A stretch of DNA of 8,341 nucleotides from a virus (lineage: Duplodnaviria > Heunggongvirae > Uroviricota > Caudoviricetes), in IMG/VR virus record IMGVR_UViG_2529292921_000006. One strand, 5' to 3'. Position 1 is the first letter of the stretch. Every line of letters begins with the position of its first letter. Shown piece after piece: positions 1 to 6,622 of the stretch. Both the position numbers and the translations under genes were made by a program. The notes below the pieces were generated by a model. That model saw only the letters and a list, made by a program, of their open reading frames with translations, had not been told where the DNA came from and did no database searches.

Positions 1-818
<818 letters not shown>

Positions 819-828: not shown

Positions 829-2331
829 ATGGGTTTTTCATCAGCCCGAAATTTGGGAAGGGACATATCGGCAGGATTTTCTCCACCACGTCGCATGCCG
901 ATTTCGGAGGCTGTTAAAAAATTCATGCGTGTTCCCAAGGGGGCTGGTAACTCGGTGCCATGGGATCCTGAACTGACACCCTACATCATTGAGCCCATGA
1001 ACTGCCTGGCATCGCGTGAATACGATGCGGTGATTTTTGTTGGTCCTGCGCGAACAGGGAAGACCATTGGTCTGATCGATGGATGGATTGTCTATACCAT
1101 CGTTTGCGATCCTTCGGACATGCTCGTTGTGCAGATGACCGAAGATAAGGCCCGCGAGCATTCAAAAAAGCGCCTCGACAGAACGTTCAGAAGCAGTGCG
1201 GCGGTAAAGAAAAGAATGAGTCCACGTCGTAATGACAATAATGTCCATGATAAGACGTTCAGGGATGGCTCGTTCCTTAAAATTGGTTGGCCCTCGGTCA
1301 ACATTATGTCGTCGTCGGATTACCGGTTTGTCGCCTTAACCGATTACGACCGTTTTCCGGAGAATATCGACAGCGAGGGTGATGGTTTCTCCCTGGCCTC
1401 AAAACGTACCACCACATTTATGTCCTCCGGGATGACTCTGGTGGAGAGCTCGCCGGGACGTGACATCTGCGACAGCAAATGGCGACGTAAGTCGCCTCAT
1501 GAAGCGCCACCGACGACTGGTATTCTTTCCCTTTACAATCGTGGTGACCGCCGCCGCTGGTACTGGCCATGTCCGCACTGCGGTGAATATTTTCAGCCAG
1601 CCATGGATGCCATGACCGGCTACCGTAATGAACCGGATCCCTTTAAAGCCAGTGAGGCGGCGTATCTACTTTGCCCGCACTGCAGCGGCATTATCACTGC
1701 GGAGAAAAAGCGTGAGCTCAATAGTGCAGGAGTCTGGTTGCGTGAAGGTCAGGTCATTGATTGTAACGGCAACGTTTCCGGTGAACCGCGCCGCTCCCGT
1801 ATCGCCAGTTTCTGGATGGAAGGGCCAGCTGCTGCGTATCAGACCTGGGCGCAACTGGTTTACAAATTACTGACTGCAGAACAGGAGTATGAAGCGACAG
1901 GAAGTGAAGAAACACTCAGGGCGGTTATCAACACCGACTGGGGATTACCTTATCTTCCCCGCGCCAGCATGGAGCAACGAAAAAGTGAACTGCTTGAGCA
2001 GCGGGCAGAGCCAGTTCATTCCCGCAGTGTGCCGGATGGCGTTAATTTTCTTGTGGCGACAGTGGATGTGCAGGCGGGACGTCATCGCCGTTTTGTGGTT
2101 CAGGTAACGGGCTATGGCAGCCGTGGCGAACGCTGGATTATTGATCGTTACAACATCACGCAGTCATTGCGCGGTGACAGCGACGGGGAGAGCCAGCGAA
2201 TTGATCCGGCCAGCTATCCGGAAGACTGGGATGTCCTGCTGACGGATGTTTTTCATAAAAGACTGGCCGCTGGCCTCCGATCCTTCTCAACAAATGCGAC
2301 TGATGGCAATGGCGGTGGACTCCGGCGGTGA
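829..2331 (+). CDS. Terminase large subunit (lambda gpA family), N-terminal ATPase and central portion; reading frame breaks near 2245-2262
   Basis: Strong SD upstream of ATG 829. Canonical Walker A FVGPARTGKT. Motifs WYWPCPHCGEYFQ and LLCPHCSGII match the lambda gpA CPHCGE region; FWMEGPAAAYQTWAQLV and VNFLVATVDVQAGRH...WIIDRYNI match further gpA blocks. The final ~25 residues (AAGLRSFSTNATDGNGGGLRR) look out-of-frame. Confidence 0.85.
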   Translation: MGFSSARNLGRDISAGFSPPRRMPISEAVKKFMRVPKGAGNSVPWDPELTPYIIEPMNCLASREYDAVIFVGPARTGKTIGLIDGWIVYTIVCDPSDMLVVQMTEDKAREHSKKRLDRTFRSSAAVKKRMSPRRNDNNVHDKTFRDGSFLKIGWPSVNIMSSSDYRFVALTDYDRFPENIDSEGDGFSLASKRTTTFMSSGMTLVESSPGRDICDSKWRRKSPHEAPPTTGILSLYNRGDRRRWYWPCPHCGEYFQPAMDAMTGYRNEPDPFKASEAAYLLCPHCSGIITAEKKRELNSAGVWLREGQVIDCNGNVSGEPRRSRIASFWMEGPAAAYQTWAQLVYKLLTAEQEYEATGSEETLRAVINTDWGLPYLPRASMEQRKSELLEQRAEPVHSRSVPDGVNFLVATVDVQAGRHRRFVVQVTGYGSRGERWIIDRYNITQSLRGDSDGESQRIDPASYPEDWDVLLTDVFHKRLAAGLRSFSTNATDGNGGGLRR

Positions 2332-2929: not shown

Positions 2930-3138
2930 ACCAGAATGATATCGAAGCCATGATTCAGCGTTATACGGAAGCTGAAATGGCGGTGCTGGACGGAAAATCC
3001 GTCACCTTTAATGGTCAGCAGATGACCATGGAAAACTTATCTGAGATCCGGCAGGGACGGCAGGAGTGGGAGCGCCGCCTTGCGGCTCTGATTACACGAC
3101 GACGGGGGCATCCCGGGTATCGGCTGGCGAGGTTCTGA
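2926..3138 (+). CDS. Head-tail joining protein, lambda gpW family
   Basis: 70 aa. The C-terminus ...LITRRRGHPGYRLARF resembles the lambda gpW C-terminus (...RRRGPAGFYV). GGAGG at 2915-2919 lies 6 nt before ATG 2926, which overlaps the terL stop (ATGA). The ORF-track start at 2920 leaves no room for an SD. Confidence 0.8.
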   Translation: MNQNDIEAMIQRYTEAEMAVLDGKSVTFNGQQMTMENLSEIRQGRQEWERRLAALITRRRGHPGYRLARF

Positions 3139-4646
3139 TGGCAATTCTTGATGATGTGATTGGCGTTTTTTCACCAGGATGGAAAGCGGCAAGGCTGCGT
3201 TCCCGTGCGGTGATCCAGGCTTATGAGGCCGTAAAAACGACGCGGACACACAAAGCCCGACGGGAGAACCGAACTGCCGACCAGTTAAGCCAGTACGGGG
3301 CCGTGTCGTTACGTGAGCAGGCCCGTTACCTTGATAACAACCACGATCTGGTTATTGGTGTATTTGACAAGCTGGAAGAACGGGTGGTGGGGAAAAACGG
3401 GATTATTGTCGAGCCACATCCGGTATTACGCAATGGGGCCATTGCCCGTGATCTGGCAGCGGAGATTCGCACCCGATGGAGTGAATGGTCTGTCAGCCCG
3501 GAAGTCACCGGGCAGTTTACCCGTCCGATGCTGGAACGTCTGATGCTGCGTACCTGGCTGCGCGATGGTGAGGTGTTTGCCCAGATGGTTTCCGGGCGCA
3601 TAAACAGCCTGACGCCTTCTGCCGGTGTTCATTTCTGGCTGGAGGCGCTCGAGCCGGACTTTATTCCCATGACCAGAGATGAGAGCAACAGGCTGAATCA
3701 GGGCGTGTTTGTTGATGACTGGGGGCGTCCCGAAAAATATCTGGTGTATAAAAGCCGTCCCGTATCCGGGCGGCAGATGGAAACCAAAGAAGTGGATGCA
3801 GAGCGAATGCTGCATCTTAAATTTGTTCGCCGTCTGCACCAGATGCGCGGGACGTCTTTGTTGTCCGGTGTGCTGATCCGCCTCAGTGCCCTGAAAGAGT
3901 ATGAAGATTCTGAGCTGACTGCAGCAAGGATCGCCGCTGCTCTGGGGATGTACATCCGGAAAGGCGACGGGCAGAGCTATGAACCGGATGGTAATGGCAG
4001 CAAGGAGAATGAACGCGAGCTTACCATTCAGCCAGGCATTATTTACGACGATCTGAAACCCGGCGAAGAAATCGGAATGGTGAAGTCGGATCGTCCCAAT
4101 CCTAACCTTGAAACTTTTCGTAATGGTCAGTTGCGTGCCGTGGCGGCGGGCAGTCGTCTGAGTTTTTCCAGTACGGCACGCAACTATGACGGCACTTACA
4201 GCGCCCAGCGTCGGGAACTGGTTGAGTCTACTGATGGCTACCTGATCCTGCAGGACTGGTTTATTGGTGCCGTCACCCGCCCGATGTATCGTGCCTGGCT
4301 GAAACAGGCTGTGGCATCCGGTGTTATCAGGCTACCCCGCGATCTTGACCGTTCTTCACTGTATACCGCGGTGTATTCCGGACCAGTGATGCCGTGGATT
4401 GACCCTGTTAAGGAGGCTGAGGCCTGGAAAATCCAGATTCGTGGTGGAGCGGCGACAGAATCAGACTGGGTACGTGCAGGTGGTCGTAATCCGGATGATG
4501 TCAAACGTCGGCGCAAGGCCGAAATTGATGAAAACCGCAAGCTGGATCTGGTATTTGATACCGATCCGGCCAGTGATAAAGGAGGCAGCAGTGCCGCAAC
4601 GAAACGACAGGAGCCACAGCACACCGACGACCAGTCCGAAGAATAA
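3138..4646 (+). CDS. Portal protein (lambda gpB family)
   Basis: 502 aa from ATG 3138, which overlaps the gpW stop (TGATG). Its size and position after terL/gpW fit a portal, and the C-terminal half (...SAQRRELVESTDGYLILQDWFIGAVTRPMYRAWLKQAV...) has a lambda-portal-like pattern. The upstream extension to 3066 in the ORF track overlaps gpW and is not adopted. Confidence 0.85.
   Translation: MAILDDVIGVFSPGWKAARLRSRAVIQAYEAVKTTRTHKARRENRTADQLSQYGAVSLREQARYLDNNHDLVIGVFDKLEERVVGKNGIIVEPHPVLRNGAIARDLAAEIRTRWSEWSVSPEVTGQFTRPMLERLMLRTWLRDGEVFAQMVSGRINSLTPSAGVHFWLEALEPDFIPMTRDESNRLNQGVFVDDWGRPEKYLVYKSRPVSGRQMETKEVDAERMLHLKFVRRLHQMRGTSLLSGVLIRLSALKEYEDSELTAARIAAALGMYIRKGDGQSYEPDGNGSKENERELTIQPGIIYDDLKPGEEIGMVKSDRPNPNLETFRNGQLRAVAAGSRLSFSSTARNYDGTYSAQRRELVESTDGYLILQDWFIGAVTRPMYRAWLKQAVASGVIRLPRDLDRSSLYTAVYSGPVMPWIDPVKEAEAWKIQIRGGAATESDWVRAGGRNPDDVKRRRKAEIDENRKLDLVFDTDPASDKGGSSAATKRQEPQHTDDQSEE
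4581..4585 (+). promoter_or_regulatory. Shine-Dalgarno GGAGG for the prohead protease (GTG start)
   Basis: AAAGGAGG followed by a 5-nt spacer and GTG 4591. Confidence 0.5.
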
Positions 4647-5286
4647 TTCCTGGTTCAGGATGCAGGCTGGTCACCAGAGTGACGCGGATATTTATATTTA
4701 TGACGAGATTGGTTTCTGGGGTGTTACAGCGAAGCAGTTTATCAGTGATCTGAATGCACTGGGCGATATCACCCACATTAATCTCCATATTAATTCACCG
4801 GGTGGCGATGTCTTTGAAGGCATCGCCATTTTTAATGCGCTGAAAACACATGGTGCGTCCATTACCGTTTATGTCGACGGTGTGGCGGCGTCAATGGCGT
4901 CGGTCATTGCGATGGTGGGAAACCCGGTCATTATGCCGGAAAACACCTTCATGATGATTCATAAACCATTTGGCTTTACGGGCGGTGATGCGGAGGACAT
5001 GCGCACCTATGCCGACCTGCTCGATAAGGTTGAGGCGGTTCTGTTACCCGCTTATGCACAGAAAACCGGGAAAACCACCGATGAAATTGCTGCCATGCTG
5101 GCGGATGAGACCTGGATGTCCGGTGCCGAATGTCTGGCACATGGATTTGCTGATCAGGTGACGCCAGCCGTTAAGGCAATGGCATGTATTCAGTCAAAAC
5201 GTACAGAGGAATTTAAAAAGATGCCGGAATCCATTCGAAACATGATTTACTCCGCCACGCAACAGTGCTCCACGCGTACAGGATGA
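4591..5286 (+). CDS. Prohead (head maturation) protease, ClpP-like serine protease (S14 family)
   Basis: ClpP-fold motifs: ...SWFRMQAGHQSDADIYIYDEIGFWG..., INSPGGDVFEGIAIFNAL, active-site-like GVAASMASVIA, and MMIHKP (His). Start chosen at GTG 4591 because of the strong SD and because it keeps the SWFR N-terminal motif; ATG 4660 is an alternative. The stop TGA 5284-5286 overlaps an ATG at 5283 (ATGA). Confidence 0.8.
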   Translation: MPQRNDRSHSTPTTSPKNNSWFRMQAGHQSDADIYIYDEIGFWGVTAKQFISDLNALGDITHINLHINSPGGDVFEGIAIFNALKTHGASITVYVDGVAASMASVIAMVGNPVIMPENTFMMIHKPFGFTGGDAEDMRTYADLLDKVEAVLLPAYAQKTGKTTDEIAAMLADETWMSGAECLAHGFADQVTPAVKAMACIQSKRTEEFKKMPESIRNMIYSATQQCSTRTG

Positions 5287-5413
5287 TGGACCTGCAGCCT
5301 CCCGGACGCCAGTGCAAGGCAGCAGCACCTGTGGTGGATGAAAACAGTATCCGTGCGCAGGTACTGGCAGAGCAAAAAAGCGCGTGTAAAACGGTATTAA
5401 TGATCTGTTTGCC

Positions 5414-6622
5414 ATGTTTGGCGGGCGTTATCAGACGCTGCAGGCTCAGTGTCTTGCCGATCCTGAATGTTCGCTGGAGCAGGCCCGCGAAAAGCTGTTG
5501 AACGAGATGGGGCGCGAGTCCACGCCATCCAATAAAAATACCCCGGCTCATATTTATGCCGGTAACGGTAATTTTGTGGGGGACGGGATCCGCCAGGCGC
5601 TGATGGCGCGTGCCGGATTTGAAAAAACCGAACGTGATAATGTCTACAACGGGATGACCCTGCGTGAATATGCCCGTATGTCACTGACTGAACGGGGTAT
5701 TGGGGTTTCCAGTTATAACCCGATGCAGATGGTCGGTGCGGCGTTCACACACAGTACGTCTGACTTCGGTAATATTCTGCTGGATGTTTCGAACAAAGCC
5801 ATTCTGCAGGGCTGGGAAGATGCCCCTGAAACCTATGAACAGTGGACGCGGAAAGGTCAGTTGTCTGATTTTAAAATTGCCCATCGTGTGGGTATGGGGG
5901 GCTTCAGTGCTCTGCGTCAGGTGCGTGAAGGGGCGGAATATAAATACGTCACCACCGGAGATAAACAGGCCACTATTGCACTGGCGACCTATGGCGAGCT
6001 GTTCAGTATCACCCGTCAGGCCATTATCAATGATGATCTGAATATGCTGACCGATGTCCCGATGAAACTGGGCCGTGCGGCGAAATCCACTATTGCCGAT
6101 CTGGTTTATGCCATTCTGACGTCTAACCCGAAAATCTCCACAGATAATGTAAGTCTGTTCGATAAAGCGAAACATGCAAACGTACTGGAGAGCGCTGCAA
6201 TGGACGTGGCATCGCTGGATAAAGCCCGCCAGTTGATGCGCGTTCAGAAAGAGGGGGAGCGTCATCTGAATATTCGTCCTGCGTTCGTACTGGTACCGAC
6301 GGCGATGGAGTCTGTTGCTAACCAGGTCATTCGCTCCTCAAGTGTCAAGGGGGCTGACATTAACGCCGGTATTATTAACCCGGTGAAAGATTTTGCGACC
6401 GTTATTGCAGAGCCTCGTCTTGATGATAACAGCCAGACCACCTTCTACCTGGCTGCGTCCAAAGGCTCCGATACGATTGAAGTGGCTTATCTCAACGGTG
6501 TGGATACGCCATATATTGATCAGATGGAGGGCTTCAGTGTGGATGGCGTGACAACGAAAGTGCGTATTGACGCCGGTGTCGCGCCAGTTGATCACCGCGG
6601 TCTGGTGAAATGTACGGCGTAA
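5414..6622 (+). CDS. Major capsid protein (probably HK97-fold with an N-terminal scaffold-like region); 5' end uncertain
   Basis: 402-aa ORF directly downstream of the portal and prohead protease and upstream of a decoration-like gene and gpFII; followed by a terminator-like hairpin. The first ATG (5414) has no recognisable SD, and the frame opens only at 5390. See the finding on a possible frameshifted 5' extension from 5283. Confidence 0.75.
   Translation: MFGGRYQTLQAQCLADPECSLEQAREKLLNEMGRESTPSNKNTPAHIYAGNGNFVGDGIRQALMARAGFEKTERDNVYNGMTLREYARMSLTERGIGVSSYNPMQMVGAAFTHSTSDFGNILLDVSNKAILQGWEDAPETYEQWTRKGQLSDFKIAHRVGMGGFSALRQVREGAEYKYVTTGDKQATIALATYGELFSITRQAIINDDLNMLTDVPMKLGRAAKSTIADLVYAILTSNPKISTDNVSLFDKAKHANVLESAAMDVASLDKARQLMRVQKEGERHLNIRPAFVLVPTAMESVANQVIRSSSVKGADINAGIINPVKDFATVIAEPRLDDNSQTTFYLAASKGSDTIEVAYLNGVDTPYIDQMEGFSVDGVTTKVRIDAGVAPVDHRGLVKCTA

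Follow-up and report, generated by a model that had tools for sequence, protein, structure and literature searches.

The window analysed here, a stretch of 8,341 bp, is the whole of contig AIEW01000013.1 from a 2012-era draft whole-genome-shotgun assembly (GCA_000249075.2) of Escherichia coli DEC1B, the strain name carried by the protein records EHU17836.1, EHU17837.1 and EHU17839.1. It carries the module for head morphogenesis of a lambdoid prophage resembling cdtI and Tritos, and its phage part is 99.1–99.5% identical to relatives over the aligned stretch. The gene for the large terminase subunit (TerL) sits between the small-terminase and portal genes, in the order DUF1441 remnant, TerL, 70-aa ORF and Phage_portal_2, and the portal gene is followed in turn by a fusion of a ClpP-like prohead protease with the major capsid protein, a DUF2190 head protein, a Gifsy-2-type protein, and the minor tail proteins Z and U. 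Features lie on the plus strand unless stated otherwise.

The left edge of the contig is occupied by one end of IS100, an element of the IS21 family (positions 1–635, minus strand), in which istA is open over its N-terminal 182 codons (1–548). This end abuts, at about position 635, the final 62 codons of the small-terminase gene (DUF1441; 635–820), so that the first ∼114 codons of that gene are missing from the contig. The contig probably ends at this point because IS100 is a repeat. The junction between IS100 and the small-terminase gene occurred in none of the 5,426 complete E. coli genomes searched, and a search for sister contigs carrying either the ORF at this junction or an identical portal protein found none besides AIEW01000013.1, that portal protein being present only in GCA_000249075.2. 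The IS100 segment differs from common IS100 by three substitutions (98, 252 and 405) in 635 bp, with best matches of 98.9–99.1%, a higher density of substitutions than in the phage part.

As deposited, the terminase gene is split between two ORFs. The upstream ORF (829–2331; 500 aa, with its TGA stop at 2329–2331) is 99.7% identical to intact gpA-family large-terminase genes; its codons 1–477 are authentic, while the final 23 (2260–2328) are read out of frame, close to the 25 or so residues that a preliminary description of this DNA had suspected. The 3′ part of the gene lies in the +1 frame (2243–2929; 227 aa), which opens at 2243 after a TGA at 2240–2242 and offers a first ATG at 2246 and another in-frame ATG at 2303. 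Pfam searches place the full GpA_ATPase profile (PF05876, E = 4.6e-81) at residues 40–303 of the upstream ORF, followed by positions 1–133 of the 294 positions of GpA_nuclease (PF20454), which cover the initial 45% of the nuclease domain; profile positions 133–294 fall in the downstream ORF, which thus encodes the second half of that domain together with the C-terminal tail. The sharing of the GpA_nuclease profile between the two ORFs means that one domain has been cut midway, in keeping with the earlier assignment of the ATPase and central gpA-like motifs to 829–2331 and of the C-terminal nuclease region to the +1 frame. In GenBank the terminase appears as two annotated proteins, EHU17836.1 (444 aa, from the internal ATG at 997) and EHU17837.1 (208 aa, from the ATG at 2303), and these fragments (997–2331 and 2303–2929) stand as separate entries in public protein databases.

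Alignment of 829–2929 to intact gpA-family genes, which the preliminary description had proposed as a means of locating the indel, places it at A2262. The 2,101-nt stretch matches terminase genes of 2,100 nt, and at base level the intact AAAAG-CTGGCC is aligned with AAAAGACTGGCC in the window, A2262 being the sole indel in the terminase and lying between G2261 and C2263. The supernumerary base, AAAAG[A]CTGG, is absent from every homologue examined in the alignments; the deposited form of the site is AAAAGACTGG, and without the extra A (AAAAG^CTGG) it becomes AAAAGCTGG. It is this additional A that splits the ORF at codon 478. It also interrupts the first copy of a tandem 7-bp direct repeat (GCTGGCC twice, 2261–2275).

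The claim that a single gpA-family gene has been interrupted by a one-base frameshift is therefore borne out by both the Pfam domains and the alignment to intact homologues, although the lesion is not the one first proposed. The T5 run at 2249–2253 and the A4 run at 2257–2260 were correctly positioned, but a change in the length of either one was rejected since both runs are as long as in every intact homologue, and the extra base lies one position 3′ of the A4 run. Taking one base out of either run does restore the reading frame, as had been stated, but not the ancestral sequence, for which A2262 itself has to be removed. Its removal gives a 699-aa protein without stops in which GpA_nuclease is complete (residues 325–643, profile positions 1–294 of 294), and the gene then becomes the single ORF of ∼640–700 codons expected of a gpA-type TerL. 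The junction peptide is ...LLTDVFHKSWPLASDPSQQMRL... and the repaired protein reads ...LLTDVFHKSWPLASDPSQQMRLMAMAVDSGG...; at the junction this gives ...DVFHKSWPLAS..., so that the (H/I)KDWPLAS suggested earlier was wrong at one residue, S rather than D. The repaired protein differs from the commonest TerL allele only by A200S and P397H.

The closest phage relatives are the TerL proteins of phages cdtI, Tritos and HannyBb, members of the lambda gpA family (PF05876 + PF20454) whose genes share 98.9–99.2% DNA identity with the window over all 2.1 kb and which match it in the order both of domains and of the surrounding genes (small terminase, TerL, 70-aa protein, portal, protease-capsid fusion). 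The window differs from all three in the extra A2262, with its ORF split at codon 478, and in the private amino-acid changes A200S and P397H. Beyond these phages, the terminase is up to 99.7% identical to that of hundreds of E. coli prophages, and the intact relatives are all single CDSs of 699–700 codons. The two-ORF layout, which the preliminary description had named as the organisation that would speak against its reading, was accordingly not encountered among intact homologues: the gene is a single ORF in cdtI, Tritos, HannyBb and ∼1,920 complete E. coli genomes.

To place the allele among sequenced strains, 5,426 complete E. coli genomes were searched with a 60-nt query that has the insertion site at its centre. 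The site was found in 1,921 of them (2,078 places), and none of these 1,921 genomes was identical to the 60-mer and so carried the extra A; the best matches listed were all 98.3% identical, which corresponds to a single-base gap. An exact 39-mer containing A2262 was searched for in the GTDB species-representative genomes, in IMG/VR and in the JGI metagenomes and matched nothing, and the exact products of both ORFs, when looked up, were on record only from AIEW01000013.1. By sequence matching, the +A2262 allele is a singleton in the collections searched.

The terminase is not the only head gene that is broken on this contig. The gene for the ClpP-like prohead protease/major capsid fusion (4591–6622) is interrupted by four private single-base insertions, namely TT to TTT (5246–5248), A to AA (5316–5317), A5 to A6 (5374–5379) and A3 to A4 (5388–5391), all of them homopolymer extensions and all packed into 143 bp. 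This clustering is the strongest hint of a low-quality patch in the contig. GenBank calls the fusion as two proteins (4660–5286 and 5576–6622). Including A2262, the contig has five indels relative to its close relatives, each a +1 insertion of A or T, and across 7.7 kb of phage sequence this comparison revealed no deletions. When the five extra bases are deleted all nine coding regions are open, the small-terminase remnant included, with neither internal stops nor any other defect. Nine candidate-private substitutions were also identified against the three closest relatives compared (at 882, 1426, 2018, 2548, 3677, 4188, 4213, 5330 and 5789), three synonymous and six non-synonymous, the latter comprising A200S and P397H in TerL, S180R, N351D and Q359R in the portal protein, and A399S in the capsid protein.

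In other strains the terminase gene exists as a second, independent frameshift allele. It has lost one copy of GCTGGCC, a 7-bp deletion equivalent to window positions 2261–2275 and hence within 15 bp of A2262, and it occurs in at least three independent samples (SRR33931544, ERR9384361 and GCA_017132015.1), which are unrelated assemblies with read support. Its products, of 488 aa and 208 aa (HAY3826878.1 and HAY3826879.1), reflect a split of the same gene into an N-terminal fragment and a C-terminal fragment identical to the 208-aa one of DEC1B. The deletion is classic slippage seen in several independent samples, whereas DEC1B has a 1-bp insertion that was encountered once. Among complete E. 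coli genomes, no record matched at least 80% of the 60-mer for the deletion allele at ≥99% identity, the lone match at ≥99% being partial. In the loci compared, the deletion-allele sites lie at 4397–4475 (both L009 and L010) and 3042–3120 (L011).

What remains is to account for the extra base, for which an inactivating mutation and a sequencing or assembly error, the two possibilities raised at the outset, proved to be the only serious candidates. We consider it probable that A2262 is an uncorrected base-calling error in the deposited consensus, a reading in which both the sequencing platform and a lack of read support for the base are inferred, while the position and uniqueness of the insertion, the error-like character of all five indels and the contig's draft origin are shown. 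The large-terminase gene itself would then be an ordinary 699-codon gene of the lambda gpA type. In a flow-based error of the 454 type (phasing, or ‘carry-forward’), signal from the neighbouring A4 run would spill into the next A flow, and the base-caller would then add a spurious A past the intervening G. The four clustered over-calls in the capsid gene would be errors of the same kind in a poorly covered stretch, and the terminase ORF would be intact in the living strain, the apparent split having no biology behind it.

Carry-forward errors are described as insertions of one base identical to that of a homopolymer close by but not adjacent (PMC3764156), and A2262 fits this description, since in AAAA-G-A the inserted base is that of the homopolymer one position away. 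The other four insertions in the window likewise extend homopolymers, as 454 over-calls do; 454 errors also include under-calls, whereas all five events here are insertions, and the error would further have had to survive into the consensus. Just 0.55% of all possible 1-bp insertions in the contig would mimic carry-forward next to a run of at least four bases, and the chance of at least four of five random sites lying within 143 bp is 1.1e-4. The DECA genomes were presumably produced by a centre that released other E. coli drafts at about the same time. Those contemporaneous drafts were built from 454 Titanium paired-end reads with the Celera assembler (PMC3491183). The DEC1B assembly may likewise have been made from flow-based reads, with which the four homopolymer over-calls on the contig fit.

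Several observations count against an artefact, and most of them bear on the alternative that the insertion is real and arose in the DEC1B lineage after IS100 had crippled the prophage, leaving its packaging genes to drift neutrally. This we regard as possible but unlikely. Genuine decay is plausible because IS100 has already cut the small-terminase gene: the junction at ∼635, with the first ∼114 codons gone, is structural damage of a kind that no base-calling error can produce, and thus the further, non-artefactual inactivating lesion expected of a cryptic prophage is indeed present. Since the prophage is already defective, frameshifts in its head genes would be selectively neutral and a real one would be no surprise. 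The ∼9 candidate-private substitutions, with their neutral-looking ratio of six non-synonymous to three synonymous, look like relaxed selection and not like pyrosequencing error; a miscalled base would need to persist through several reads to enter the consensus; and the read-supported loss of GCTGGCC within the same 15 bp in at least three samples demonstrates that the gene does decay at this very spot in nature. The indel spectrum, however, is unlike that of spontaneous mutation, with five A or T insertions, no deletions, and four of the five within 143 bp (P about 1e-4). Three of the five insertions are at runs of at most two bases, in which slippage during replication is uncommon. If spontaneous mutation in E. 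coli is taken to yield ∼1 indel per 10 substitutions, the indel-to-substitution ratio of at least 5:9 (at least five indels among 14 private changes) has a probability of about 0.009. In addition, the inserted base copies a rare, platform-specific error pattern, and the allele has turned up in no second assembly. A variant in which the +A is real and the 15-bp AAAAG-(GCTGGCC)x2 element is a recurrent hotspot for terminase loss in lambdoid prophages, struck independently by the +A and by the 7-bp deletion, seems to us very improbable; in its stronger version, the AAA_AGA context would let a trickle of full-length TerL form by +1 slippage.

Slippage of this sort is also the basis of a reading to which we attach hardly any credence, that the extra A is real and that full-length terminase is made by recoding. 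The Lys-tRNA on AAA (2257–2259) would re-pair with AAA (2258–2260) while the rare Arg codon AGA (2260–2262) occupied the A site, giving a product that reads ...HKDWPLAS... (S478D). As sequence context AAA_AGA_C permits perfect re-pairing in the +1 frame just before a rare codon, and rare AGA and AGG codons promote +1 shifts in E. coli. It resembles the frameshift sites of E. coli prfB (CUU_UGA_C) and yeast Ty1 (CUU_AGG_C) in having a shift-prone P-site codon followed by a slowly decoded A-site codon, but differs from them in lacking a conserved two-ORF layout, an upstream Shine-Dalgarno-like or structural stimulator, and evidence of function. The allele is a singleton, with the extra base in none of the 1,921 genomes and the two-ORF layout in none of the homologues; the overlap contains no stimulatory structure (minimum free energy z = 0.15), and neither an Rfam match nor a tandem-repeat array, the latter sought in the frameshift test, was found. 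Moreover, because the small-terminase and capsid genes are broken too, a restored TerL would serve no evident purpose. Programmed frameshifting thus finds no support and is excluded in practice. Least probable of all, to a degree that we regard as negligible, is a naturally split terminase whose ATPase and nuclease parts are made as two polypeptides from an independent downstream start; the in-frame ATGs at 2246 and 2303 are all that speaks for it, whereas the break falls inside a single Pfam domain and not between domains, and a two-gene terminase is refuted by the single ORFs of 699–700 aa in every intact relative, in phages and ∼1,920 genomes alike.

The split terminase is thus no new biological feature, being most likely a sequencing error and otherwise the ordinary decay of a broken prophage, and either way it reveals nothing new about terminases or recoding. 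If the insertion were real, it would be one more neutral lesion in a prophage already inactivated by IS100. The 5′ product would then retain the ATPase and one half of the nuclease fold and end in 23 nonsense residues, while the C-terminal fragment would be either untranslated or translated separately, the 3′ half needing its own initiation; with one Pfam domain bisected, neither fragment would be predicted to cut cos DNA. A search of the PDB for a solved structure of a close TerL homologue, as a guide to the catalytic residues, returned no sequence match.

With a base-calling error as the preferred explanation, the main consequence is one of data quality. GenBank itself and the protein databases drawn from it contain the truncated ‘terminase’ proteins EHU17836.1 and EHU17837.1 as well as the split protease and capsid proteins, and any scoring of prophage intactness or pseudogenes in DEC1B would count at least two head genes as broken that may be intact in the cell.

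Comparison with a further prophage terminase, that of the EPEC strain E2348/69 (NC_011601.1, 1063842–1065944), gave a different pattern of divergence along the gene. It is strongly diverged from the window over 930–1921 and nearly identical from ∼1962 onwards, a pattern that marks the terminase gene as mosaic, with a recombination boundary within window positions ∼925–1962.
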